From Gemmatimonadota bacterium (GTDB lineage Bacteria > Gemmatimonadota > Gemmatimonadetes > Longimicrobiales > Gaopeijiaceae), in contig JAXHMG010000003.1 in assembly GCA_034521595.1 (NCBI GenBank), forward strand, positions 2,560,001 through 2,624,000: a stretch of DNA of 64,000 nucleotides, read 5' to 3'. Position numbers and translations under genes: made by a program. The notes beneath the pieces were generated by a model that saw nothing but the letters and a program-made list of their open reading frames with translations, did not search any database and was not told the DNA's origin. Each line of letters begins with the position of its first letter. The first letter of the stretch is position 1. Below are positions 6,092 to 22,220 of this stretch, one piece after another.

Positions 6092-6508
6092 ATGACCATG
6101 CGAGCTCTTGCACCGGCCACCCTGTTTCGGAGCTCTCTCGTCCTGGTCTCACTGCTCGGCGTCGGCGCTTGCGGGCTCACGACGAGCTCGCACAACCCTT
6201 TCGACGGCAGCCTCGAGCAGGAGCAGGAAGACCGGCTGCGGATCCAGATCCAGAACATGAACTTCAACGACGTCACCATCTACGCCGTGTCGGCAGGCCA
6301 GCGGGAACGGCTCGGCAACGTGACCGGGAAGACGGATCGGAACTTCCGGCTGCGGTGGAATTACGCCAACCCGATCTCGTTCGAGATCGACGTCGTCGGC
6401 GGGTCCGGGTGTGACACGAATCCGCTCGCCGTCGAACCGGGTGCTCGGGTCTGGGTCCAGATTCCCAACCAAGTGAGGTCTTCGGGATGCCGCTCCGGAC
6501 GAGCCTGA
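6092..6508 (+). CDS. Hypothetical lipoprotein, paralog of the next gene
   Basis: Signal peptide with lipobox VGAC; shares N-x-N-F, AVS, RLG-x-x-x-GK-x-D, EID, V-x-PG, QI, GCR with 6487-7146; GAGG RBS. Confidence 0.8.
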   Translation: MTMRALAPATLFRSSLVLVSLLGVGACGLTTSSHNPFDGSLEQEQEDRLRIQIQNMNFNDVTIYAVSAGQRERLGNVTGKTDRNFRLRWNYANPISFEIDVVGGSGCDTNPLAVEPGARVWVQIPNQVRSSGCRSGRA

Positions 6509-7146
6509 CCGCGCTAGCAGCCCGTGGTAGAAGTCTGGTGGCCCGCGTTGGGAGCGCCACGGCCCGTGCTCCTATGGCGGAGCCCCGAAGGCATAGCCGT
6601 AGCTACGTCGAGGGGCTCCAACGACGGAGCGGGGGCCGTGCCGCCCCAACCCGGAGGGCACGAGGGGATTGCGGCCGCATGCGGCGTTGGCTCCTTTCGC
6701 CGATGCTGCAGCATCGCCTTCAAGAAGCCGCCTTGCCTGCGACACGCAAGACCCTCGTGCGCGGACCACCAAACTTCTACCACGGGCTGCTAGCATTCGC
6801 CCTCCTGGCGAGCGGGTGCGCCGGAGGCGGCATGTCGACTTCGGACGGCCCCTTCGCGGCCGCGAGCGACGGTCCCCGGACGGTGAGCATCCACGTGCGG
6901 AACCTCAACTTCAGCGAGGCGCGCCTCTGGGCCGTGAGCCGTGGCGGGCGTCAGCGATTGGGTGTGATCGACGGAAAAGCCGACGCGGTGTACCGCATCA
7001 CCTGGACCGTGTCCCAACCGATGCAGATCGAGATCGACCTGCTCGCCGGCCCCCGCTGCATGACGGAGCCGATGCAGGTGGATCCCGGCGACGATCTCGA
7101 GCTCCAGATCCAGATGGACTTCTCCCGTCAGCCGGGATGTCGCTGA
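6487..7146 (+). CDS. Hypothetical lipoprotein carrying an in-frame 92-codon palindromic-element insertion in its signal peptide
   Basis: Removing 6514-6789 gives MPLRTSLTALAFALLASGC-AGGG..., a canonical lipoprotein signal; the mature part is homologous to the upstream gene. Confidence 0.8.
   Translation: MPLRTSLTALAARGRSLVARVGSATARAPMAEPRRHSRSYVEGLQRRSGGRAAPTRRARGDCGRMRRWLLSPMLQHRLQEAALPATRKTLVRGPPNFYHGLLAFALLASGCAGGGMSTSDGPFAAASDGPRTVSIHVRNLNFSEARLWAVSRGGRQRLGVIDGKADAVYRITWTVSQPMQIEIDLLAGPRCMTEPMQVDPGDDLELQIQMDFSRQPGCR
6514..6793. mobile_element. MITE-like palindromic element, copy 1 (30-bp TIRs, flanked by CTAG/CTAG)
   Basis: Left CAGCCCGTGGTAGAAGTCTGGTGGCCCGCG vs reverse complement of right end CAGCCCGTGGTAGAAGTTTGGTGGTCCGCG (28/30); CTAG at 6514-6517 and 6790-6793; homologous copy at 19041-19317; no transposase. 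Confidence 0.92.
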
Positions 7147-7177
7147 CCCGGACGCCCGGGCCGCGACCGCCGGCCCG

Positions 7178-8353
7178 TCAGTACAGAAGGAAGGGCTCCA
7201 CAGCGCGTGTGAACTCGTCCAGCTCGTCACTCACCCCGGCCATCAACGCCCGCGCATCGGCGCCCGAATCGATTCCCGTCCGCAAGCCGTCATGCCCCCA
7301 CAGGAGATCGATCGGCATCGTCTCCTGCTCGTACTCGTAGGGGGGCGGGCGCCAAGCGAGCATGCTCGGGGCGAGCGCTCGGACGGCCGCCAGGATCTCC
7401 ACGGCGGCGCGCACCGGCTCGAAGCGCTGGGGATCGTCCACGTGGAGCTGCGCCCCCCCGCAAAGACGGCCCGCATGCTTCTGGAAGGTGGGCTCGAAGT
7501 GACATGGGCGGAGGGTCACGCCGTCGCCGAGCCGGGAAGCGAGCCGTGAGACCAGGGCGCGAGGGTCGACGAACGGGGCCCCGAACAGCTCGAAAGGCCG
7601 GGTCGTGCCGCGGCCTTCGGAGAGATTCGTTCCCTCGAGAAGGACCATCCCGGGGTACACCTCACAAGACTCCGGCGTCGGGAGATTCGGGCTCGGCATC
7701 ACCCAGGGAAGGCCCGTGTCCGCCCACCTCATGTCTCGGCGCCAGCCGGTGCAGGGCACGACCTCCAGCCGACATCCGATCGCCCGCTCCTCGTTCAGCC
7801 AGCGCGCGAGCTCCCCGGCCGTGAGGCCGTGCCGGAGCGGCACCGGATGCAGACCCACGAACGACTCGAATCCCGGCTTCAACAGCGGACCTTCCCGCTG
7901 CACGCCCCCGATCGGGTTCGGGCGGTCGAGCACTACGAAACGAACGCCGGCTTCGGCGCAGGCTTCCATCGCCAGCGCCATCGTCCACACGAACGTGTAG
8001 ACCCGAACTCCCACGTCCTGCAGATCGAACACGACCGCATCGAGGCCGTCGAGCATCTCCCGGGTCGGCTTGCGCACCGCGCCGTACAAGGAATGTACCG
8101 GCAGCCCGGTGACGGGATCGTGGTAGCCCGCGGACTCCACCATGTTGTCCTGCTTCTCCCCGCGGGCTCCGTGTTGAGGACCGAACAGGGCCCGGACATT
8201 GAAGCCCGCGTCCACGAGCGCGTCGGCCGTGTGCACCAAATCCGGGGTCACCGAGGCCGGATGCACGATCAACCCCGTGCGCTCCATCCTCAGGTCCCCG
8301 TGCGCTCCGGCCAACACGCGCGAAAGCCCGGGTCGTACGGTCACGGCTCCCAT
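7178..8353 (-). CDS. DUF1343 / NamZ-family exo-beta-N-acetylmuramidase
   Basis: LFGPQHG, VHSLYG, FDLQDVGVRVYTF, VLDRPNPIGG, PSPNLPT, NLSEGRGTTRPFE motifs. Confidence 0.92.
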   Translation of the reverse strand: MGAVTVRPGLSRVLAGAHGDLRMERTGLIVHPASVTPDLVHTADALVDAGFNVRALFGPQHGARGEKQDNMVESAGYHDPVTGLPVHSLYGAVRKPTREMLDGLDAVVFDLQDVGVRVYTFVWTMALAMEACAEAGVRFVVLDRPNPIGGVQREGPLLKPGFESFVGLHPVPLRHGLTAGELARWLNEERAIGCRLEVVPCTGWRRDMRWADTGLPWVMPSPNLPTPESCEVYPGMVLLEGTNLSEGRGTTRPFELFGAPFVDPRALVSRLASRLGDGVTLRPCHFEPTFQKHAGRLCGGAQLHVDDPQRFEPVRAAVEILAAVRALAPSMLAWRPPPYEYEQETMPIDLLWGHDGLRTGIDSGADARALMAGVSDELDEFTRAVEPFLLY

Positions 8354-10059
8354 TCGATATCGTGCCGGTGCGCTCCCGAGAGCTCCGGAATACGCAGTGT
8401 ATCCGCCTCGGACTCGTCGCCGTCACGGCGGAGCGACACCGAAAGCAGTCGGCCCTCGGGCACGCCACACAGCCGGTAGAAGCCGTCCGAATCCGTCTCC
8501 GTCGCCATCCCTTCGACGTTCGAGCCGGTGATGCGCCTCTCACCGCTACCTCGAGGCGTCATCCGGAAGTCCTCCCAACGCACCTCGACCGACACACCGG
8601 CCCGTGGCCGGCGCCCCTCCTGTCCGGTGACGCGACCGGCCAGGACCGCGGTCCCTTCCGGTGGAGCTTCCGCCCGACACGCTTCGAACAAAAGGTCCGA
8701 AAGCGGTGGCATCCTGAAGAAGACCGACGTGACCTCACCGCTCCGCACCTCACGCTCGATCGGATCCGGCTGCACCCCGAACGCTTCGAAACGGGTATCC
8801 ACGAAGCGGATCCGATAGGTCCCGTCGCTCAGCCCGGTGATGCGGAAGCGCCCTTCTTCGTCCGTGAACACCTGCTGGTTGGAACCCACCACGCCCACGC
8901 GCACGCCGCGGAGCGGAAGCACCCCCAAGCTGTCCTGCACGAATCCTTCAATGGTACCGGATTCTCCTCGGAGGAACGCGTCGCCTCCGCTGTTTCGCAC
9001 CTCGGCCACCCGCCCCCCGGCCTGTCGGTAGCCGTCGATCCGGGTTCGGAGGCGGCCTTGCAGTCCTCGCTCCTGAACCAGCACCGGCATCCGAATCCAC
9101 CATTCGGGCACGATCCACGTTCCGTCGGGCATGCTGCGGAACTCGACGCGCCCCCCGATCAGGTCCGTGGCGAGCCCCGGCAGCACGTTCACGTACCGGT
9201 ACTCGAGCCAGCGGAGCTCCGCCGTCTCCGGATCCAACCAGAGCGTTCCGGCGATATCGGCGATCCGATTGCTCCGGTCCGACGCCGGCTCGAACGCAAC
9301 GCCCACGAGGCCCTCGGTCCCTTCGCTTCCCTCCTCGAGACGCAGGCAGTGTGAATCGAGGAACACGTCCGAAAGGAGCACCCTCGCGTCGGGCGCGTAG
9401 TACCGCATCGAGCCGTCGTCATCCTCCTGCACGAACCCGCCCTCCACGAGGTCTTCGGCGGGCAGGCTCTCGAACGGCACGCGCATGAAGCCCTCTCGCT
9501 CGCTGCCCGTCTCACGCTGAACCACGCGAGCGTCACGGTCCAGATCTCTCTGCCAGGTCTCGATCCTGTATCGGTAGAGGTCGGAACGGTCCGTATACGA
9601 CGCAGCTTCCAGCGCCTTTCGAGCTTCGTCCCACACCCGGGCGATCGTCAGCCCCTCCTCCGGTCGGATTCGGCACCGCTCCCCCGCGCTCACCTCGATT
9701 CCTTCGAGCGCGATCGCGCTCGAAGGAAGACGCACCTCGACCTGCTCGGGTGTTCCCGACTCGACGTCGAAGCGCTCGCTCGTGGTCGTCTCGCGGCCGA
9801 TCATCTCCACCCGAATCCGGTAGGCTCCGGGCTCCACGTCCAGGAACATCGCCCGCCCGATATCGTCGGTGAGGGTGGTCTCGACCGTCACACCCCCGTC
9901 GTCGAGCAAATAGCTCAATGCGCCGGAGACGGGCGCGTCCGTCTCTGCATCGAGCACCCGAGCCAACACCGTTTGAGCCGCCGCCGCGGCCGGGTTCAGG
10001 ACGAGAGCCGACACCAAGAGCAGCGCGAACGCGCAACCCCGCTTCGGCATCGACTTCAC
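8341..10059 (-). CDS. Secreted protein with carboxypeptidase-regulatory-like (transthyretin-like) repeats
   Basis: Signal peptide (PAAAAAQ), repeated 'TDxxGRFRITGLxxGTYRI'-type modules; GTG start overlapping upstream stop (ATG 10050 is an alternative). Confidence 0.75.
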   Translation of the reverse strand: MKSMPKRGCAFALLLVSALVLNPAAAAAQTVLARVLDAETDAPVSGALSYLLDDGGVTVETTLTDDIGRAMFLDVEPGAYRIRVEMIGRETTTSERFDVESGTPEQVEVRLPSSAIALEGIEVSAGERCRIRPEEGLTIARVWDEARKALEAASYTDRSDLYRYRIETWQRDLDRDARVVQRETGSEREGFMRVPFESLPAEDLVEGGFVQEDDDGSMRYYAPDARVLLSDVFLDSHCLRLEEGSEGTEGLVGVAFEPASDRSNRIADIAGTLWLDPETAELRWLEYRYVNVLPGLATDLIGGRVEFRSMPDGTWIVPEWWIRMPVLVQERGLQGRLRTRIDGYRQAGGRVAEVRNSGGDAFLRGESGTIEGFVQDSLGVLPLRGVRVGVVGSNQQVFTDEEGRFRITGLSDGTYRIRFVDTRFEAFGVQPDPIEREVRSGEVTSVFFRMPPLSDLLFEACRAEAPPEGTAVLAGRVTGQEGRRPRAGVSVEVRWEDFRMTPRGSGERRITGSNVEGMATETDSDGFYRLCGVPEGRLLSVSLRRDGDESEADTLRIPELSGAHRHDIEWEP

Positions 10060-12005
10060 CCCGTCTCCTCCGAGAAGTCGAAGTGGCTCGGCGCAGCGCC
10101 ACAGGACCCCATGCCCCACCCCGCCGACAAGCTGAGCCACCGTCCGAGCCCGAGCGGACTCGATGAGCTGGCCCCGGGGAACAATCCGGTTGACGCTCGC
10201 CGAAAGAGAGGTTCCTCCGAATCCCACCACACGAGGGCATCGTGCGCCCGGGCCAGGAATTCTCGATACGCCTCGCCAGGACCGAACACGACTCGGTTCA
10301 GGTTCATGCAGGGCGCGAGCGTCGCCATGAGCGCGAAGCCCTCCCAAGCCAATCCCCGCACCGTCGCCGAATCCAACACCAGTCCGGGTAACATCCGTGC
10401 AATCGCCTCCGTGCTGGCCGGTCGCTCCATGTGGATCCGCCCAGCGGTCCGCGCGGCCGTGCGGCGGGCCTCACTCAGCCGCGCCGCATCCGCCTCCCGG
10501 CCCGTCTCCACGAAGAACGACGCCAACGCCCGACCACCCTCACGAATCATCGCGTGTCCGACCAGGTTGTCCATCAAGGTAGGCCCTTGATCCGCGAGGA
10601 GAAATCCCACGGACACGACTTCACGGATCAAGGTTTCCGCCTCCGCATTGCGGCCCTCCAGAAGCGCGGATCCGGCCGCCGCCAGGTGGGCATGGCCCCC
10701 GACGCGAAGCCCGCTCAAGCGTGGTGTGGGCAGCACCGTGCCTCCTCCGCCGCCGGCGAGTGGGGTGAGGCGATCGCCCCACCGGGCGGCGGCGGCATCG
10801 ATCCGCTCCGCTCGGGCCAGACGCGAGAAGTCCGTGTGGGCACGATGATCGGCCAAGGAGGCGAGGTAGCGCCGAAGCTCTTCGTTCGGTGCGTCGGACA
10901 CCGATGGGAACAAGGCCTCGGACCACGTATGGGGGGGAGCCCCGACAGGGTTGGACTCGCCCTCGTCCGGAATCCAGGGCGCTTCGATGCGGAGCGGGGG
11001 CTCGACCTCGCCCGGCCGGACGGGTTCGCTCGAGCCGACATAGGCGAGGTTCTGGAGCAACCGCCCCGCCTCTCCGGCCGTAACCGTCGGATCGTGGGGA
11101 ACGCCATAACCACGGAAGGCCTCCAACTCGGCCGCGCTCCGTTGCACCCGCTCATATTCGGGAATCGACACACGGGCGAGCGCTGGACCGACTGCGGAGG
11201 TAGGCACCAGGGAGAGGACGGGCAGCAGCACCACCACCGCAGCCACACCCGCAGCCACCGTCCCGCGGCGCAACCGTGCCGCGTGCCGATCCAGGGTCTC
11301 GGGCTCGCGAGTGGACGCGCGCGTGGCTTGCTGCCACGCCCGGATACGCTCGGGATCGAGGTCATCCTCCCACGCACCCCCGTGCCACGCCTTTCGGGCT
11401 CTCCGGATGCGTGCGTCCTCCGTCAAGCCGGTGACGGCGCCGAACAGATAGAAGCCGGCCGCGGGCGCGACGGTCACGAGCAAGAGTGTCTCCGGCCCGA
11501 TCCAACCACGAGCCGCCACCCAGAGCCCGAGCGCCAGACTCGAACACAGCCAGAGCCCACCCGCCGCGTGCAACGCGGCCGTGAGAACCCGCAACGAGCG
11601 AAGCACCTCACGCGCCCGCGGCTCGAGCACGGAAAAGTAGCGTCGACCGGCTAGCAGGAACCCCATATCCCGGCGACGGTCCGCGACGACGTACAGCACA
11701 GTGTCGACGCCGTACCCCCGCTCGACCGCCCGGGTCGCCCGATGGAGGAGCCGGGCCACACGCACGAAGGCATCGATCGCGAACGTCAAACCGAAAGCGA
11801 CGACGACCACCGCCACCCACCACGCATCGGCGAGCGGCCCCAACGTCGCGACGTCGGTTTGCCGGGTGGTGAGCAGGAGAAGCGGAGCCACGAGGAAGAG
11901 CCCCGCGAGCCAGCCACTCGTGACCACCCCCCACAGGTCCCCCTGTAGCCGTTCGAGGCCCGGGGGAGGCCAGCGAAATTCCGTATCCCGTTCGCTCAAC
12001 ACCAC
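10056..12005 (-). CDS. Hypothetical membrane protein (several TM helices plus a large soluble domain)
   Basis: 649-aa ORF with multiple hydrophobic segments; stop overlaps the next start. Confidence 0.75.
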   Translation of the reverse strand: MVLSERDTEFRWPPPGLERLQGDLWGVVTSGWLAGLFLVAPLLLLTTRQTDVATLGPLADAWWVAVVVVAFGLTFAIDAFVRVARLLHRATRAVERGYGVDTVLYVVADRRRDMGFLLAGRRYFSVLEPRAREVLRSLRVLTAALHAAGGLWLCSSLALGLWVAARGWIGPETLLLVTVAPAAGFYLFGAVTGLTEDARIRRARKAWHGGAWEDDLDPERIRAWQQATRASTREPETLDRHAARLRRGTVAAGVAAVVVLLPVLSLVPTSAVGPALARVSIPEYERVQRSAAELEAFRGYGVPHDPTVTAGEAGRLLQNLAYVGSSEPVRPGEVEPPLRIEAPWIPDEGESNPVGAPPHTWSEALFPSVSDAPNEELRRYLASLADHRAHTDFSRLARAERIDAAAARWGDRLTPLAGGGGGTVLPTPRLSGLRVGGHAHLAAAGSALLEGRNAEAETLIREVVSVGFLLADQGPTLMDNLVGHAMIREGGRALASFFVETGREADAARLSEARRTAARTAGRIHMERPASTEAIARMLPGLVLDSATVRGLAWEGFALMATLAPCMNLNRVVFGPGEAYREFLARAHDALVWWDSEEPLFRRASTGLFPGASSSSPLGLGRWLSLSAGWGMGSCGAAPSHFDFSEETG

Positions 12006-12327
12006 CTCACGGGTTGTACGCGACCTCGTCCTGCGTGGTGCCGAACGGTGTCCGCGCGTTCACCGAAACTCCCGAGAGAAGACCCCAAAGCTCGGCGTTG
12101 AGGTCCACCCGAGGGTCATGCGCCTCGACACTCGGCGACGCCCATCGGACCTCGCGCATCACCGAGGCAGCCCAAGCGTCGTCGGCCCCGCGTTCCGGCG
12201 ACCTTGCGCACCCATCCGACGGCTGTCATCTCACCAACCCGTCCCGTACCGGAGGGGGGAGCGGGAGCCTCTCCGGGGTGGAAACCGTCGTGGACACCGG
12301 CCCGCGCCCAACCCACGAGGAGCCGAG

Positions 12328-13338
12328 ATGACAGCGAGACCCCGACCGACCCCCGAATCCGAGCCGAGCCTTCCGGGAGCACCTGGCCGAGCGGTCGCAG
12401 CGATCCGCTCGGAGGACATCGAGTCCGCGCGGGAACGCATCGCTCCCAGCATCCGGCGAACCCCGCTGCTCCCGCTCGAAGGCGCGAGGATGCCTTGCTC
12501 CATGCACCTCAAGCTCGAGTCGCTACAGCCGATCGGGTCCTTCAAGCTGCGAGGCGCGGCCAACGCGATGGCCCTCGCCGACGGCAAGGCGCTCCAGCGT
12601 GGCGTGTACACGGGCAGCGCCGGCAACATGGCTCAGGGGATCGCCTACGCCGCACGTGAGCGGGGCATCGCCTGCCGGGTCATCGTACCCGAAACCGCTC
12701 CCGAAACGAAGATCCGCGCGATCGAACATCTGGGAGCGACCTGTGTGCCCGTTCCCTACGAGGAATGGTGGTCGATCCTCCAGAACCATGGAGATCCCGA
12801 AGAGCCGGGCTTCTTCATCCATCCGGTCGCGGACGCTTCCGTCATCGCCGGTAACGGAACGATCGGTCTGGAGATCCTCGAAGATCTCCCCGAGGTGGAT
12901 GCCGTCGTCGTGCCCTTCGGGGGCGGGGGCCTATCTTGCGGCATCGCGTCGGCGGTGAAGGCCGCTCGCCCCGACGTCCGGGTGTTCGCGGCCGAAGTGG
13001 AAACCGCCGCACCGTTCGCGGCATCCCTTCGGGCGGGTGCACCGATGTCGATCGAGCGGGTCCCCTCTTTCGTGGACGGGATCGGAGGGTCGAGCGTGCT
13101 GCCCGAGATGTGGCCCCTCGCGTCGAACCTGCTCGACGGCTCGATCGTGGTCGGGCTCGAGGAGGTACGGAACGCGGTCCGCATGCTCGTGCGCGACTCG
13201 CGGATCGTGGCCGAGGGCGCGGGCGCGGCGGCGCTCGCCGCGGCCCTCACCGGTGCCGCGGGTGGAGGAACGGTCGCGGTCGTGATCTCGGGCGGGAACA
13301 TCGACGCCTCGGTGCTCGCGGACATCCTTTCGAAGTGA
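12328..13338 (+). CDS. PLP-dependent threonine/serine dehydratase family protein
   Basis: LKLESLQPIGSFKLRGA, SAGNMAQG, GNGTIGLEI, VPFGGGGL, EGAGA, ISGGNID; GAGGAG RBS. Confidence 0.92.
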   Translation: MTARPRPTPESEPSLPGAPGRAVAAIRSEDIESARERIAPSIRRTPLLPLEGARMPCSMHLKLESLQPIGSFKLRGAANAMALADGKALQRGVYTGSAGNMAQGIAYAARERGIACRVIVPETAPETKIRAIEHLGATCVPVPYEEWWSILQNHGDPEEPGFFIHPVADASVIAGNGTIGLEILEDLPEVDAVVVPFGGGGLSCGIASAVKAARPDVRVFAAEVETAAPFAASLRAGAPMSIERVPSFVDGIGGSSVLPEMWPLASNLLDGSIVVGLEEVRNAVRMLVRDSRIVAEGAGAAALAAALTGAAGGGTVAVVISGGNIDASVLADILSK

Positions 13339-13359
13339 AGGGAGACCGGTCACGACGAA

Positions 13360-13387
13360 GGGGCCGGTGGCGAATGCCACCGGCCCC
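13360..13387. terminator. GC-rich hairpin between convergent genes (putative terminator)
   Basis: GGGGCCGGTGGC-GAAT-GCCACCGGCCCC perfect 12-bp stem; weak U-tract. Confidence 0.65.
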
Positions 13388-13441
13388 CGGTCGGCCTCCT
13401 GACTCACCCGCCGTCGCTGTGCGCCGACAGGGATCGAAGGG

Positions 13442-15628
13442 CTATTTGACGAACAGCATGTCCCGATAGGTGGGAACGGGCCACAGATCGTCCGGCACGA
13501 TGCGCTCCAGGCGATCCACGACATCGCGAACCGCGGTCAGGGTAGGAATGATGCTGCTGCGCATGTGCTCGGCCTTGGAAACGACATCGTCGCCTCCGGG
13601 GTCCTGGTTCTGCTCGGCGAGCACCGTGACCTTCTCGTTCAGCTGATCGACGAGCGCGTTCACCTTGCGAGCGGTCGTGAGCACTCCCTCGGCGGCCAGC
13701 CCGAGGTCATCGGCGCGACCCGCGGTCGCCAACAGATCGTTCAGATACCGCTGGGCCGCGGGCAGGTACATGGTCTGCGCCATGTGCTGGCCGGTCTCGC
13801 CCTCGATGTTGATCGTCATGAAGAACTGCTCGACGAAGATCTCGTACCGGGACTCGAGCTCGCGTGGCGAGAGCACATTGTACTTCTCGAACAGCGCGGC
13901 GTTCTTCTCGCTCACGAGGGTTGGCAGCGCATCCATCGTGGTTCTCAGATTCAAGAGTCCCCTGCGCTCGGCCTCTTCCACCCACTCCTGCGAGTAGTTG
14001 TCGCCATTGAAGATCACGTGCTTGAACTCGTGGATCTCCTCCGCGAGGAGCTGCCGAAGGGCATCCTCGAACGAAGTCCCCTTCTCGAGCGCTGCTTCCA
14101 GCTTGGTGCACAGGTCGTCGATGGCTTCAGCCACGATCGTGTTCAGCACGATGATCGGTCCCGACACGCTCTGGGAGGACCCCACCGCACGGAACTCCCA
14201 CTTGTTGCCCGTGAACGCGAACGGCGACGTCCGGTTCCGGTCACCGGCATGCTTCGGAAGCTTCGGCAGAACGTCGACGCCGAGCCCGAGCAGCCCGGAC
14301 TGCTTGCTCGTCTTGGCCTCCCCTGCATTTTCGATCTGCTCGAAGATGTCCTGAAGCTGGTCACCGCAGAACGCCGAGATGATCGCCGGAGGAGCCTCAT
14401 TGGCACCGAGCCGGTGATCGTTGCCGGCGTGCGCGATGCTCCCACGCAGGAGGTCCTGATGTCTCGCGACGGCCTTCAGAACGGCAGAGCAGAAAAAGAG
14501 AAACTGAATGTTCTCGTGGGGCGTCTCGCCGGGCTCGAGGAGATTCTGCTCGGACGTCCCGAAGGACCAGTTCACGTGCTTTCCGCTCCCGTTGACCCCC
14601 TGGAACGGCTTCTCGTGAAGTAGGCAAACGAGCCCGTACTTACGAGCGACCCGCCGCAGCGTGGACATCATGAGCTGCTGATGATCCGCGCCCTGGTTCG
14701 CGTCCTCGAAGATCGGCGCCATCTCGTACTGGCCCGGAGCGACCTCGTTGTGCCGCGTGGTGACCGGGATGCCGATCTTGTAGAGCTCGAACTCCACCTC
14801 GTTCATGTACTCCAGCACGCGGGCGGGGATGGAGCCGAAATAGTGGTCGTCCATCTCCTGGCCTTTCGGAGGCCGGGTACCGAACAGGGTTCGGCCCGAG
14901 GTGACCAGATCCGGCCGCCGATAGAAGAACTCCTCGTCGACGAGGAAGAACTCCTGCTCGGCGCCACAGGTCGCGCGTACGGCGCGCGGAGGTGAACCGA
15001 AGAGCTCGAGTGCCCTGCGGGCCTGCCGGTCGAGCGCATGCATCGAGCGGAGCAAGGGCGTCTTCTTGTCGAGCGCGTCTCCCGTCCAGGATGCGAACGC
15101 CGTCGGAATGCAGAGATACGCACCACCGGGCCCTTCGACGAGAAACGCGGGGGACGTCGGATCCCACGCGGTATAGCCGCGTGCTTCGAACGTCGGACGG
15201 AGTCCCCCGGAGGGGAACGACGAGGCATCGGGCTCTCCCTGGACGAGCGAGTCACCCGTGAACTCGGTGATCGCCCGGCCGTCTCCCGTCGGCTTCAGGA
15301 ACGAGTCGTGCTTCTCCGCCGTCAGTCCGGTCAACGGCTGGAACCAGTGCGTGAAGTGGGTCGCGCCCTTCTCCATCGCCCAATCCTTCATGGCGATAGC
15401 CACCGCATCCGCGACGGACGCATCGAGCTCCGTGCCGTTCTGTATCGTGGCGACGAGTGCCTTGTACTGCGGCTTTGGCAACCTCGACTTCATCTGGTGC
15501 AACCCGAAAAGGTTGTCGCCGAATACTTCCTCGAGGTTGATGCGCTTCTGTACGATACCGTTCTCGTCCGATACCGGCGCGTACTGCGCGGCTGCGAGCG
15601 TGTCGAAACGGGGTGTGGTCCTGGGCAT
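13442..15628 (-). CDS. glnA: Glutamine synthetase type III
   Basis: 728 aa; [83 protein letters not shown]. Confidence 0.96.
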
Positions 15629-15748
15629 GGTGCGTTACCTCACTGACGCTTGGTGTATGTCGAGCCTTGAATCTCGGGCAGCTTCACCTGGGACTCAATG
15701 GTCTATAACATATATATACTTACGCTAATTATTCTTAGGCAACCTACC

Positions 15749-17143
15749 ATGGCGCACCCAAGTGGGCGGTTCGTTGGGCGCAGCAGGGAAATCGGCCGGA
15801 TACGCACGGCACTCGACCAGCCGCACGCTTCGCTCATCCGCATCGAAGGCATGCGCGGGATCGGCAAATCCGCGCTCGTTGCCCGAGCGCTGGAAGAGGG
15901 CCAGCACGTCTCCCTACGGGTGCCGGCCCTTCCGGAGCCGTTGCAGGTCGCGAGGTTGCGCGCGAACCTCGTCGGCGGAGACGAGGCGAGCATGTCCGAG
16001 GGTGGGAACGAGGGGTGGCCCGGTCTGTTCGCCATGGCTTTGCGGAGGGCCCGCCCGGACGGCCCTCCCTTCGCTTTCGTGCTCGACGACGCGCACCGGC
16101 TAACTGAAGCGCGTGCACGGTACCTGGAGCCGCTTTCGGCCGCCCTGCGCTCGGCTCGAGAGGAGCGGAGACCGTTCCACGTCGTCCTCGTGGGCCCGAT
16201 CGCGCGCGAGAACGGCGAGCTCGAGAACGACGAGCTCGAGGGTGACCGCATCGTCGTCCACCCCCTTCCACTCCGTCCCGCGACCGGCCTCCTTCCCGGG
16301 CGAACCGCTCGCGACCGGATCCGCGCCTATAGCGTATTCGGGGGGATCCCCCGCGTGCTCGCCGCCGTGGAAAGGGATGTGACGCTGGAGACGAACATTC
16401 GCAGGCTCGCGTTGGAGCCCGACGCTCCCTTCGAAAACGTCGCCGCGCACTGGCTCGAGCGCGACCTGCAGACGCCCAGTCGGTATAACGCGATCCTCGC
16501 CCGACTGGCGCACGGGGAGTGTGACTGGGGCACGCTCCACGAGGCCGTTCCGGACCTTACGTCCAGCGGCCAGTTGGCACCCTACCTCGGGCGGCTCGAA
16601 GAGTTGGGGCTGGCGTCCGTCCGCCGCTCGCTCGACGCCGCTCCGAACAGCCGCTCCCGCCGGTACGTGGTGAACGACCCGTTCCTCGCGTTCTGCTATC
16701 GTTTCGTGATGCACGCATCCGGTACCGAGGAGCGGCTCGGACACATTCGTGCGGCGCTGGATGAGCACGTTGGCACGGTGTTTCCGCGAATCTGTCGGCA
16801 ACACATGGAGCACGACGCCCTCGAGACGCTCGGAGCCAACGCCCGTGAGCTGGGGAGTCTCTGGAGCCCCGGTCCCGAGGTCCCCGTCGCCGGGCTCTTG
16901 GCCTCCGGCCCCGCTTTTTACGGCGACTGCTGGTGGGACCAGCCCCGCCAACGCGACGATCCGTTCGGGGAGCTGGATCGAGCCACCCGGGAAACGCGAT
17001 ACGGTTTCGGGCGGGAGCACCGCCTGCGCCTGCTGTTCACCGGCCACGCGGCCCCACGGTGGCTGGAGCGCGAAGCAGTGCGCCGCGAGCAGTGTCGGCT
17101 GATCGGTCCCGAAGCGCTGGTCGGGGGCGGTCGAGCCCGCTGA
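15749..17143 (+). CDS. AAA ATPase of the 'archaeal ATPase'/DUF234 type
   Basis: FVGRSREI, Walker A GMRGIGKS, Walker B FVLDDAH, YSVFGGIPR, YVVNDPFLAF. Confidence 0.8.
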   Translation: MAHPSGRFVGRSREIGRIRTALDQPHASLIRIEGMRGIGKSALVARALEEGQHVSLRVPALPEPLQVARLRANLVGGDEASMSEGGNEGWPGLFAMALRRARPDGPPFAFVLDDAHRLTEARARYLEPLSAALRSAREERRPFHVVLVGPIARENGELENDELEGDRIVVHPLPLRPATGLLPGRTARDRIRAYSVFGGIPRVLAAVERDVTLETNIRRLALEPDAPFENVAAHWLERDLQTPSRYNAILARLAHGECDWGTLHEAVPDLTSSGQLAPYLGRLEELGLASVRRSLDAAPNSRSRRYVVNDPFLAFCYRFVMHASGTEERLGHIRAALDEHVGTVFPRICRQHMEHDALETLGANARELGSLWSPGPEVPVAGLLASGPAFYGDCWWDQPRQRDDPFGELDRATRETRYGFGREHRLRLLFTGHAAPRWLEREAVRREQCRLIGPEALVGGGRAR

Positions 17144-17147
17144 CTCG

Positions 17148-20100
17148 TCAGCCGTCCCGATCCGCCGGCGGAAATCGGACGGCGAATGTGGCCCCCTGCC
17201 CGGGTTCGCTCTCGACATGGATCGTGCCACCACTCTGCTTGACGATTCCGTACGAAGTGGCGAGCCCCAGACCGGTTCCACCCCGATCCCGGCGGGTGCT
17301 GAAGAACGGCTCGAAGATCCGCGCCCGGGTCTCTCGGTCCATCCCCTCCCCGGTGTCGGCGACCGTCACCGTCACGTACTCTCCGGCGAGGATTCCGGTG
17401 AGCGGTACGGCCTGAGCGGCCTCGATTTCCTCGAGTTCCACCGCAACCGTCACGACACCACCGCGTGGCATCGCGTCCCGCGCATTCGCCACCAGGTTCA
17501 TGACGACTTGCTCGAGTTGGACGCGATCGACGCGCACCGGCGGCAGATCCGGGCTGAGCTCCATGATCAGATCGACGGTGTCCCCGAGCAGTCGCTCCAG
17601 AAGTGGCTCGAGTGATCCCAGCACCGCCGCCACGTCGACCAGGCGTGGCCGGAGCACCTGATCCCGGCTGAACGCGAGGAGCTGTCGGGTGAGCTCCGAT
17701 CCACGCTCGGCGGCGTCCCGGATGAGCGTCACCTCCTCGGCCCATTCGCTTTCTTCCGGAAGGTCGATCAGGAGTAGATCGGATTGGCCCACGATCACCG
17801 TGAGCAGGTTGTTGAAGTCGTGCGCGACGCCTCCCGCGAGCCGGCCCACCGCTTCCATCTTCTGCACCTGCCGTAGTCGCCGCTCGAGCGTTCGCCTTTC
17901 GGTTACGTCACCCGCGACGCCCAGGATTCGGCGCACGACCCCCTCCTCGTCACGAACCGGGAACGCGCGATCCCAGATCCACCGAATCTCGCCGTCGGGA
18001 CGTACGATGCGGTATTCCTCGGCGTAGGTCCCTTCACCCTGACGGGGAAGGGCCGCCCGCACTTCTTCCACATCGTCGGGATGAACCGACTCCAACCATG
18101 CTTCGGGCCGTTCGAACAGCTCGCTCGACGACTTCCCCCAGATGCGCTCGAACGCCGGGCTCACGTACTCGACATGGCCGTCGGGCGCCATGATCCAGAA
18201 GACATCCTGGACGTGCTCGGCGATCTCGCGGAACCGCTGCTCGCTCTCCCGTAGCTGCCGTTCAGCTTGCACTTGCTCCGAAATATCACGCACGACGCTC
18301 ACGACACCGCCGTTCAACCCGGCTTCCGGGTCCAACAGGGCGACCGTCTGGTGCGCTTCGAACACCGTTCCGTCGCGCCGGCGCATCGGTAGGGTCGCAC
18401 GGTGGACCATTCCCCGCCGGAGCGTCGCCTGACTCTCGCGGCCGAAGGCGTGGAATCGCTCACGGGAAGCATGGAGGAGCTCGGTGCGGGAACCGATCAT
18501 CTCCTCCCGGTCCCAGCCGAAGATGAGCTCGGCGGCCCGATTCACCTCGACGATGGTGCGGAAGTCACCCTCCCCCCCGATGACCAACACGGCCTCCGAG
18601 ATGTTCGTCACGATCCGTTCGAGGAAACGCGTCGTCTCCAGGAGGCGCTCGGAGGCGCCACGGCGCTCCGTGATATCCTCTGCGAGCCCACCGATCCGGT
18701 AGACCACGCCCCTCTCGTTCGGAATGGGGAAGAGGTGCAACCGAATCCACCGCGGTTCGTCGCCCTCGTCGCCTACCCGAAACTCGACGTCGCAGGGGGC
18801 TTCACGCGCTGCCGTGAAGCCGGTCCGCAAGCGTTCCCGATCGCTCGGCATGGCATGGTCCGGCACCTCGTCCCAGTGCGCTATACGCTCGGTCCGATCG
18901 AGAAGGTCGGAGAAGCCCGGGCTCGCATGGAGGGTCGTTCCGTCCATGTCCATCAGCACGAGCGCCGTGCCCATGTTCTCCAGAAGCTGGCGGAATCGCC
19001 GCTCCTGGGTCCGCATGGTGTGCTGAGTGCGTTCTCGCTCCCAGCAGCCCGTGGTAGAAGTCTGGTGGGCCGCGTTGGGAGCGCCACGGCCCCAGACCCT
19101 AGGCGACACGACGAAGGCATAGCCCTGAGCTACGTCGAGGAGTGGCAACGACGGAGATGGGGCCGTGCCGCCCCAACCCGAAGGGCACGGGGTTGCGGCA
19201 TCGTACGGCGTCATAGCTCCTCCCCGATGCTTTGGCATCGCATTCGTCGCTCTTCCTTGTACGATATCCGCAAGACCCTCGTGCGCGGCCCACCAGACTT
19301 CTACCACGGGCTGCTAGACCCGCCCCAGCTGCACCGCCGCCTGCTCGACGAGCGTCACCAACTCGGGCTCTCGGATGACGTCGGAGGAGGAAGCCAGCCA
19401 CATCACGGCCGGCACCCGCGATCCCGCCAAGACCGGAACGGCCAACGCGAGCCCGCGGTCCCGCGACTTCCCGGTCGGCGCCGCAGGCTCCCCTTCCGCG
19501 ATGGCGCCGGACCGAACCGCCCTGCGATCGGTCCGGGCCCGCTCGACCAGCTCCAGAGCCGCGCCCGGGACCTCGGCCCCCACGAGCTCGAACGGTTCGG
19601 AGTCGCTCCGCGCGGAGGCGGACGTGTAGCGGAACGGGGAAGGGGTCAGCGCACCGCTCTCCTCCACGTAGAATACCCGCGCGACCTCGAAGCCGGCCGC
19701 GTCGCAAATCAGTGGAACGGCCCGGGTGAGCGCATCGCCGAGTGTATCGTGCGCGTTCACGAGCGCCGTCACCTGCTGCAACAACTCGACGTGCCGGCGT
19801 GCTCCCAGCGCTGTCGGCACGAGCCCCTTCCCTTCCGGGGGCGGAGTGTCGGAGATGTCCTGGATATATCCGGTCAACTCCTGACCGTGGCCAGTCTCCG
19901 TCCCTCGTCCTTGCGCGAGCACCCAACGCTCCGACCCACGCCGCGTTCTGATCCGGTAGGCCACCCGGAATGGAACCCCCTCGGCCAGGGCCTCGTCGAT
20001 CTCTCGAGCGACCCGTTTCCGGTCATCCACGTGCACGAGCGAGGCGAACGAGCGCTCGTCGTTGTGCACGAGCTCCGTCGAGCGATATCCGGTGAGCTCG

Positions 20101-20210
20101 TGCACGTTCTCGCTGAGCGCGAGCATCGTCCAGTGGGCATCGTTGCGGCAGCGATAAACGACACCCGGCAGATCGCTCACGCTCAGGATGTGCTCGAGAG
20201 GCTCGCTCAC
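17148..20210 (-). pseudogene. Multi-PAS/GAF sensor histidine kinase split by the palindromic element (ORFs 19314-20210 and 17148-19307)
   Basis: PAS (LPGVVYRCRNDAHW) and GAF in the 5' part; three PAS domains, H-box KMEAVGRLAGGVAHDFNNLL, N-box QVVMNLVANARDAM, G-boxes DTGEGM and GTGLGL in the 3' part. The two ORFs are in the same frame, separated only by TAG 19316-19314. Confidence 0.8.
19041..19317. mobile_element. MITE-like palindromic element, copy 2 (perfect 30-bp TIRs, flanked by CCAG/CTAG)
   Basis: TIR CAGCCCGTGGTAGAAGTCTGGTGGGCCGCG perfect at both ends; internal sequence homologous to 6514-6793. Confidence 0.92.
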
Positions 20211-20249
20211 ATTGGGTTCCGCCCGGAAGTGAATGGCGTAGCGAGCCCC

Positions 20250-22220
<1,971 letters not shown>

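Follow-up and report, generated by a model that had tools for sequence, protein, structure and literature searches.

Both palindromic repeats in the window analysed here, a 64,000-nt stretch of a Gemmatimonadota genome, are with a probability of about 85% copies of a Gemmatimonadota non-autonomous DNA transposon (MITE) that inserts at TA, has no built-in means of preserving a reading frame, and survives where it does little harm. The element is small, has no coding capacity for a transposase, is bounded by terminal inverted repeats and a TA duplication, and is scattered through the genome in many copies for which relatives show empty sites. The earlier note on this DNA had proposed an undescribed non-autonomous selfish element, and we found no prior description of it in the literature searched.

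Copy 1 (6517–6790, forward strand, 274 bp, or 276 bp net counting one TA) belongs to subfamily A, and copy 2 (19044–19314, forward strand, 271 bp, 273 bp net), which is antisense to its flanking genes, to subfamily B. An inverted-repeat search placed the terminal repeats of copy 1 at 6517–6547 and 6760–6790. The inverted arms measure 35 nt in copy 1 (6513–6547 and 6760–6794, 94%) and 32 nt in copy 2 (19043–19074 and 19284–19315, 100%), the terminal repeats of the window copies being 94–100% complementary. They enclose a conserved core hairpin (6548–6650 in copy 1, GTTGGG...CCCAAC, and 19074–19177 in copy 2, forward strand in both) that Gemmatimonadota share and, in copy 1, another internal hairpin that is less conserved (GGGCACGAGGG...CCCTCGTGC, 6656–6759, forward strand). 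The two copies are 81% identical across 286 alignment columns, with direct-repeat blocks at 88–96% identity. The homology, the terminal repeats and the net lengths given in the earlier note were all recovered, as was the absence of a transposase from both copies, which are too short to hold one. The predicted fold is Y-shaped (−192 kcal/mol, z −12); in it, the terminal repeats, 31–34 nt long, would close around the conserved core hairpin and the variable second hairpin.

The flanks read CTAG...CTAG at copy 1 and CCAG...CTAG at copy 2, as first noticed, but what is duplicated is the TA of a YTAR target and not CTAG. This follows from two observations: the first and last bases of the element co-vary (G...C or A...T), and the outer bases of the two flanking 4-mers differ in 9 of the 14 copies that have TA on both sides. 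Those 14 come from a total of 18; three further copies have TA on one side. In copy 1, the left TA (6515–6516) lies within codon CTA (Leu10) of a lipoprotein gene and the right TA occupies 6791–6792. Copy 2 is bounded on the left by CA (19042–19043) where TA is expected, which reads TGG (Trp) on the reverse strand; its right TA (19315–19316) forms, together with element base 19314, a reverse-strand TAG that ends the upstream open reading frame (ORF).

The family has at least 18 full-length members in the 3.49-Mb genome, as counted by a Hamming-distance scan, along with a further near-full copy and three partial ones, a size far beyond chance. The copies span 258–383 bp, and terminal inverted repeats of 31–35 nt are present in 18/18 full-length copies. 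The genome, at 67% G+C, has very few YTAR sites, 1,819 in all: 902 lie in coding sequence, 247 on stop codons and 670 between genes. As about half of the sites thus fall on stop codons or outside coding sequence, copies gather between genes and on stop codons. Random insertion at YTAR would place 50% of copies in coding sequence (902/1,819), whereas only 4 of the 19 near-full copies are found there; about 10 are intergenic and 4–5 sit on stop codons. Two of the four coding insertions are in frame in signal peptides and two truncate their genes. A frame-breaking copy in an Rce1-like/CPBP protease gene removes the last 38 codons (orthologues and Pfam), and a copy close to the 3′ end of a gene now supplies the stop with the TAG of its repeat. 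Comparison of the interrupted genes with their orthologues by tblastn gave empty sites for three insertions, and insertion positions are not conserved between species. A dicodon model was used to tell sense from antisense coding. By our reading of the neighbour table, about 8 copies are sense, 6 antisense and 4 unclear with respect to neighbouring genes. The forward strand is on the lagging side in 12/18 copies by cumulative GC skew, which is not significant. Short-read contigs from four DNA runs end inside the element and none bridges an empty site; one 66-nt skip within the core was seen in another sediment metagenome, at low likeness, and neither observation is informative.

Copy 1 is a genuine in-frame insertion, with same-genus orthologues showing the empty site. 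It interrupts the signal peptide of a lipoprotein gene (6487–7146, forward strand; MPLRTSLTAL^[92 aa]^AFALLASGC) whose frame stays open through the element; an uninterrupted tandem paralogue lies upstream (6092–6508, forward strand). A second in-frame copy, outside the window, splits the signal peptide of a DUF4159 protein. The two insertions, for which 3 and 7 related genomes carry empty-site orthologues, add 92 and 121 in-frame, stop-free codons, respectively, which bears out the proposal that the element can donate a peptide to a host gene. Both have the same orientation, phase and type of insertion site; for n = 2, survivorship is compatible with this, and a more specific role would fit too. 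Probably, copy 1 persists in frame in a signal peptide because only harmless insertions survive. The interrupted lipoprotein is presumably still exported. The second hairpin of copy 1 offers in-frame ATG codons at 6679 and 6703 and a GTG at 6757; in a speculative reading, the right arm provides an in-frame start (GTG/ATG) and a basic n-region (..RKTLVRGPP.F.HGLL), and a restart inside the element would rebuild a working signal peptide.

Copy 2, also described as intragenic in the earlier note, lies between two ORFs. It is located on the stop codon between two cistrons and is not read through: the TAG of a 298-aa PAS_3-domain ORF (19314–20210, reverse strand) consists of the junction TA and the terminal G of the element, and the element is upstream of a PAS/HisKA/HATPase_c histidine kinase gene (17148–19016, reverse strand) with a likely start ATG at 19014–19016, 24 nt past the element. 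There is an appreciable, though smaller, chance that the element instead entered the GAF–PAS linker of one long sensor-kinase gene in frame (...GRV/W/ERERTQ...), at a non-canonical CA, and that a later TGG-to-TAG change at the upstream junction split the gene. Once the element is taken out, the two ORFs read on in a single frame uninterrupted by stops; the net insert length is a multiple of three with the host frame open inside it, and the linker looks, by eye, like a typical GAF-to-PAS helix. A homologue in another genus of the same family (G008) joins the PAS-domain and PAS-kinase parts in a single frame, and each of the 26 homologues longer than the 298-aa ORF is a sensor protein with several domains. 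However, all other copies with intact flanks are at TA, and a TA at this position gives TAG in the upstream frame even before insertion. The G008 kinase lacks 252 residues, and no close fused orthologue of the two genes was found among the relatives searched. A shared frame can also arise by chance, as in a relative where hrcA and dnaJ (Pfam), separate genes on either side of a copy, share one as well.

Judged from the sequences, the unusual part of the element is its architecture, a covarying core of about 105 nt kept across Gemmatimonadota within terminal repeats that are lineage-specific. The core keeps 78–89% identity between Gemmatimonadales and Longimicrobiales, whose terminal repeats differ, and 20 of its 29 pairs show compensatory changes. 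On its forward strand, G-U cells exceed A-C cells 92 to 22, or 13 to 12 when counted by pairs. We tentatively suggest that the unit under selection may be this core, as a module of RNA or single-stranded DNA, folded and strand-biased, that every lineage would need for propagation, acting via an enzyme or host factor other than IS630, IS427-like or HUH proteins, with the terminal repeats as exchangeable adaptors. The conservation, the covariation and the excess of G-U cells would also suit copies retained chiefly for a host function of the core, for example as an mRNA-processing or protein-binding module, with mobility being secondary. We consider this improbable: the copies are mixed in orientation to their neighbours, their positions differ between species, the G-U excess nearly vanishes by pairs, and scans detected no promoter-like or terminator-like site inside either window copy.

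How a gene could remain readable after insertion can be outlined from the placing of stop codons. Insertion occurs at TA within YTAR, with duplication of the TA. On entry, one frame runs into TAG at the TA/G junction, and another into a TAG in the repeat (GGTAG) and one in the core (CATAGCCGTAGC); the third (GCA GCC CGT ...) contains no conserved stop. Hence, a gene stays readable when the copy is entered in the third phase, lies in the forward orientation and has a length divisible by three. Selection would then retain readable insertions only where the added residues are harmless, and the tolerated place would be between the n- and h-regions of the two cleaved signal peptides.

The earlier note went further and suggested that the family may be frame-preserving, its length and sequence being held at multiples of three and free of stops so that peptides of about 90 residues are donated to host proteins. 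It is very unlikely that the family is adapted in this manner, and the census has largely refuted the idea already. It draws on the two verified in-frame, stop-free insertions, on the third forward frame, which is open in 12/18 copies (7 of these also have a length of 3n), and on an excess of open frames, 18/108 against 9.7 ± 3.1 in dinucleotide shuffles, roughly twice the expectation, with 18 reached in 2/300 shuffles. This excess implies some stop depletion beyond base composition, although the copies are related to each other and the comparison is therefore not a clean test. Net lengths are 3n in 8/18 copies, but the distribution over length modulo 3 (0/1/2) is flat in this genome (8/6/4) and is 14/15/28 in 57 relatives from other Gemmatimonadota, where the non-3n length of 305 is modal. 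Many non-3n indels separate the copies, the majority lie outside genes, mostly between them or on stops, and two cut genes short. Core variation tracks base-pairing and not codon position. The peptide is absent from a 5.8-billion-protein collection (proteins of at least 162 residues, E ≤ 1e-5), an absence that weighs lightly. The forward frame does run open through both window copies as reported; the reverse frame (VVEVWW...TTGC) is open inside both but, wherever the TA is intact, ends in a TAG where TA and element meet. An open reverse frame combined with a 3n length occurs in 0/18 copies, and donation in either orientation is unsupported.

Least credible of all is neutralisation of the element by removal, through mRNA splicing or processing or through DNA excision in part of the population: the ends are predicted to pair in a stem of about 33 bp that joins both flanks, which gives no direct support, while neither copy has a match in Rfam, whether to introns, ribozymes or other families (E ≤ 1), the two in-frame cases are explicable without removal, and the location of most copies outside genes makes removal unneeded to account for their survival.

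We infer that the MITE would be moved in trans by a DDE transposase and that selection acts as the filter. No autonomous partner with matching ends was found, whether in the genome, in relatives or in 63 IS427-like elements from metagenomes, and the autonomous insertion sequence (IS) with the same terminal repeats that the earlier note had looked to did not emerge. Derivation from IS630/Tc1/mariner elements fits the TA duplication, which is also made by IS427-like elements and so does not discriminate; DDE_3 (IS630) had no match in seven genomes of the genus, tblastn with IS630 transposases gave nothing in or beside the copies, and an IS630 element in a related genus (G015) has ends unrelated to those of the MITE. 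The resident IS5/IS427-like element (about 813 bp, L200:1453–2265, DUF4096 + DDE_Tnp_1) and its 63 metagenomic relatives have TA inside CTAG at their flanks and so share both target and duplication with the MITE. Their ends, however, are uniformly GGGCSTGTTMACACTA (63 loci) versus GCAGCCCGTGGTAG in the MITE and match neither GCAGCCCGTGGTAGAAG nor the other MITE classes, sharing with some repeat classes only a loose G..CTGT motif; an IS5/IS427 origin is not supported by these ends. DUF4096 was not found in the 24 other family genomes searched, many of which carry the MITE. A REPIN/RAYT system is not supported either: no Y1 (HUH) gene (Y1_Tnp, PF01797) was found in the seven genus genomes; one of the 24 other family genomes has it. 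Because IS copies are often missing from metagenome-assembled genomes (MAGs), such absences carry little weight.

In-frame fusions of MITEs are not unusual according to PMC10969869 and PMC2229807, in keeping with the earlier note's appeal to in-frame palindromic insertions, and they are known for ERIC as well as for RPE and Correia elements. RPEs resemble the Gemmatimonadota element as small palindromic repeats tolerated in frame in conserved protein genes (same sources). Reviews report nearly half of RPE copies, and 11/12 in other species, to be in frame inside ORFs, in contrast to 2/19 here. RPEs are about 105–150 bp long with a family-specific conserved peptide, whereas in the Gemmatimonadota element the peptide is not conserved, lengths show no 3n bias and the TA duplications are clear. 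An RPE-like identity is not supported by the 2/19 in-frame share, the non-3n indels between copies and the lack of a protein match. Correia/NEMIS elements of Neisseria likewise end in TA, carry inverted repeats (about 24 nt), are transcribed into a long stem-loop and lack an identified transposase, and one subtype has open frames and is found fused to ORFs (PMC2229807). They are, however, 107–155 bp long, A+T-richer and equipped with an IHF site and promoter elements; the Gemmatimonadota element is 258–383 bp long and Y-shaped, with a phylum-conserved core and lineage-variable terminal repeats. RUP of Streptococcus pneumoniae is also non-autonomous, inserts at TA and is thought to be moved by IS630-Spn1 (PMC2229807). 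The ends of RUP correspond to those of an IS630-family element resident in the genome, unlike the situation here, where no DDE_3 gene was found in the genus.

The tempting claim of frame preservation is thus removed, as it is not a design feature of the element: its appearance results from survivorship, from where the element carries TAGs of its own and from the choice of TA as target when the genome is poor in TA. Such elements are a hazard to annotation, yielding spurious long ORFs, here of 719 and 879 aa, and misplaced starts in high-G+C MAGs. The two orthologue-backed cases in which a cleaved signal peptide tolerates an insert of 92 or 121 codons amount to a natural experiment on n-region length. 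In a textbook MITE, the ends are better conserved than the interior. This apparently unnamed, phylum-wide MITE superfamily has the reverse pattern, and the better conservation of its interior points to a mobility requirement.

The two repeats in the window belong to one family of MITEs (non-autonomous DNA transposons) in the source genome, G000 (3.49 Mb, 67% G+C, three contigs, C1 to C3), which comes from a salt-pan community. The window covers positions 2,560,001-2,624,000 of C3. Copy 1 (274 bp, subfamily A) occupies window 6517-6790 and copy 2 (271 bp, subfamily B) window 19044-19314, confirming the positions given by the earlier note. The terminal inverted repeats claimed for both copies are real: the 35-nt arms of copy 1 (6513-6547 and 6760-6794) are 94% complementary and the 32-nt arms of copy 2 (19043-19074 and 19284-19315) are 100% complementary. 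The shared open frames are also present, a plus-strand frame running through both copies and a minus-strand frame being open within both. The copies are 88-96% identical in shared blocks (81% across 286 aligned columns), and their flanking 4-mers are CTAG...CTAG for copy 1 and CCAG...CTAG for copy 2. Each strand is predicted to fold into a Y, whose outer stem is built by the repeats and whose interior consists of two long hairpins, with folding energies of −192 kcal/mol (z −12) for the plus strand and −208 kcal/mol (z −15) for the minus strand.

A Hamming scan of G000 with a 25-nt repeat as the query (at most 7 mismatches) found 69 repeat matches; taken in pairs, these define 18 full-length copies (258-383 bp). 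BLAST added one further near-full copy (C3 802,815) and three partial ones. The first and last element bases co-vary (G...C or A...T), and of the 14 copies flanked by TA at both ends, 9 carry different outer bases in their left and right flanking 4-mers. The duplicated target is therefore TA rather than the CTAG considered in the earlier note, and the consensus insertion site is Y-TA-R. Alignment of the 18 copies separates subfamilies A and B and reveals many indels whose lengths are not multiples of three. Long variants (C1 88,744, C3 104,524, C3 871,670, C3 2,202,213 and others) carry extra GC-rich mini-hairpins of 21-26 nt (e.g. ..CACCGCCGCGCCAGCGGTGG..) at several internal positions, as if a smaller palindromic unit had inserted into the MITE. 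In addition, the outermost 13-15 nt of the repeat (TA followed by GCAGCCCGTGGTAG) occur alone, with no full partner, at about 20 places in the genome, far above the chance expectation for a 13-mer (e.g. C3 1,478,035, C3 1,746,607-1,746,655, C2 126,565 and C1 8,335); one of these is a 49-bp mini-element that consists of the two MITE ends only.

The earlier note had proposed from the two window copies a family that preserves the reading frame of its host genes. The net length (element plus one TA) leaves residues 0, 1 and 2 modulo three in 8, 6 and 4 of the 18 copies, respectively. For relatives in other Gemmatimonadota, we took 60 of the 80 core matches listed, leaving out those with coverage below 85 nt or too near a locus end, and kept the 57 with a repeat score of at least 18; here the counts are 14, 15 and 28, and the modal net length, 305, is not a multiple of three. 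Gene context was scored on empty sites rebuilt in silico for each copy, using a dicodon model trained on G000 that recovered gyrB and the kinase gene next to copy 2 cleanly. Only two of the 19 near-full copies are in-frame and stop-free within coding sequence, two truncate genes close to their 3′ ends, four or five coincide precisely with a stop codon (C1 88,744, C3 802,816, C3 1,612,112, window copy 2 and possibly C3 692,276), and the remainder are intergenic. Because lengths show no preference for multiples of three and most copies are intergenic or lie on stop codons, the outcome that the earlier note had named in advance as refuting its proposal, frame preservation is not upheld.

Stop codons were counted in TA-element-TA in all six frames of the 18 copies. 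The first entry phase meets TAG at the TA/G junction, and the second meets TAG in the GGTAG of the repeat and then in CATAGCCGTAGC of the core, the conserved hairpin of about 105 nt inside the element. In the third (GCA GCC CGT ...) no stop is conserved, and 12 of 18 copies are stop-free; just 7 of these 12 have, in addition, a net length that is a multiple of three. No reverse frame among the 18 copies is both open and of such a length. Open frames number 18 of 108 against 9.7 ± 3.1 in dinucleotide shuffles, 2 of 300 of which reached 18, in a test that is not independent since the copies are related.

Comparison with orthologues shows what the intragenic copies did to their hosts. Same-genus orthologues of the lipoprotein that hosts copy 1 start MPGRTRVGALLALVLAVGLGAC, MQIRKSLSGTALALLVVSGLAAC and MRFRTRLRGRLLALGAISVAAGC, and the protein of G000 reads MPLRTSLTAL-[92 residues]-AFALLASGC. 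These uninterrupted orthologues show that copy 1 entered a CTA leucine codon at its TA and so separated the n-region of the signal peptide from the h-region. The host is one of two tandem paralogous small lipoprotein genes (window 6092-7146, 37% identity), a pair that is conserved across the genus and has no Pfam family for either member. The copy at C3 871,670 (net 363 bp) interrupts a DUF4159 protein likewise, in identical orientation and phase: the protein reads MTSL-[121 residues]-VLVAVLVLGAPGLGAAQ in G000 and MINRGLLMLLTLALPAPVLAQ or similar, uninterrupted, in 7 related genomes. Both insertions leave the h-region and cleavage site intact, and the right arm of the element encodes ...RKTLVRGPP(N/D)F(Y/C)HGLL with in-frame ATG and GTG codons (candidate starts in copy 1 at ATG 6679, ATG 6703 and GTG 6757), so that export could proceed from either the old or a new start. 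The other two intragenic copies are truncating. At C3 187,926 (net 260 bp), an Rce1-like/CPBP gene has lost its last 38 codons, its Pfam match ending at profile position 67 of 93 where orthologues run on ...YAWLYRRTGSLWIPVFAHAVTN..., and at C3 264,508 the host gene now terminates at the TAG of the repeat.

Copy 2 is antisense to its flanking genes, which lie on the minus strand. The PAS_3 ORF upstream of it (298 aa) ends in a TAG formed by TA and the terminal base of the element, and for the kinase gene the most likely start is ATG 19014-19016, which lies 24 nt past the copy. The left flank is CA where TA is expected. On the assumption of a TA here, which every other copy has, GTC TAG would have stood in the sequence even before insertion, and copy 2 would have hit an existing stop codon between two cistrons. 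In the alternative, to which we give about one chance in three, a single fused gene for a sensor kinase read TGG here and was split later. The flanking ORFs are co-phased, the insert is a multiple of three long with the host frame open inside it, and a fused homologue exists in G008, a genome of another genus of the family; however, that homologue lacks 252 residues, no close fused orthologue was found in the genus or the protein collection, and hrcA and dnaJ, which flank the copy of a relative, share a frame by coincidence. Under either reading, the upstream junction carries a stop in the present sequence. High G+C produces spurious long ORFs across this region (window 17148-21041), including a minus-strand ORF of 719 aa that starts at a GTG inside the MITE and a plus-strand ORF of 879 aa antisense to the kinase gene, which are likely traps for gene callers.

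The element is matched in 18 of 41 related genomes, often only at element positions 29-139 with 82-88% identity. There, the core is flanked by quite different 31-nt repeats (GCAGGTCGCTGAAGAAGGGGAG.., GAAGGCTGTTGAAGAAGTACAG.., GAAGGGTGATCGG.., GGAGCCTGTCCGAGTA.., GGGAAGCTCTGCACAGG..), all bordered by TA or CTAG. A degenerate core motif occurs in at least 115 stretches of species-representative genomes; among the matches listed, 79 of 80 are from MAGs labelled Gemmatimonadota, Gemmatimonadales, Gemmatimonadaceae or Longimicrobiales, and one is labelled Proteobacteria. Compensatory changes affect 20 of 29 predicted core pairs in an alignment of 87 distinct cores. The forward strand has 92 G-U cells against 22 A-C cells, which is only suggestive of strand specificity because a single pair contributes 39 of the 92 and the count by pairs is 13 against 12. 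No Rfam family matches either copy. Elsewhere in the window, a weak Rfam match to P26 (13361-13443, minus strand; 24.7 bits against a gathering score of 36, E 0.16) is probably due to chance. In two sediment metagenomes (X3 and X4), contigs cover the core (window 6572-6659) to a depth of about 600-1,500 and hardly cover the flanking genes at all, so other organisms of those sediments must carry the core in abundance.

For now, the MITE is an orphan among the transposases searched: IS630, Y1_Tnp and IS427-like. The 7 genomes of the genus yielded neither DDE_3 (IS630) nor Y1_Tnp, a weak absence since MAGs often lack IS copies; DDE_3 is present in other genera, with ends unrelated to those of the MITE. 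G000 carries one complete IS427-like element of the IS5 family (DUF4096 plus DDE_Tnp_1, about 813 bp; locus L200:1453-2265, that is C3 11,909-12,721), whose two frames are separated by an A9 slippery run and whose TA duplication lies in a CTAG, and a truncated second copy (C2 126,582). Relatives are very common in metagenomes (at least 592 stretches). In all 63 of the 80 listed relatives in which ends could be compared (the other 17 lacked an end), the target is that of the MITE, TA within CTAG, whereas the ends are uniformly GGGCSTGTTMACACTA, unlike any MITE repeat class; the ends of the resident element differ from those of the MITE as well. As IS427-like elements also duplicate TA, this duplication cannot separate IS630 from IS427-like parentage.

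The insertion site itself is scarce in G000: YTAR occurs 1,819 times where, by our own arithmetic, base composition would predict roughly 23,700, an approximately 13-fold under-representation, with 902 sites in coding sequence, 247 at stop codons and 670 intergenic. Random use of these sites would place half of the copies inside genes, against 4 of 19 observed, a depletion that purifying selection predicts. The intragenic copies that survive are found where an insert is best tolerated, in a cleaved signal peptide or among the final codons of a gene. That MITEs can be fused in frame is established, with RPE, ERIC, the 107-bp Correia subtype and others as examples (PMC2229807, PMC10969869), and the latter source describes this as "not unusual"; the literature available to us, partly as excerpts, yielded nothing on MITEs of Gemmatimonadota (Gemmatimonadetes) or on MITEs in combination with signal peptides and in-frame insertion. 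What deserves to be kept is the conserved core, together with the pair of insertions in signal peptides.
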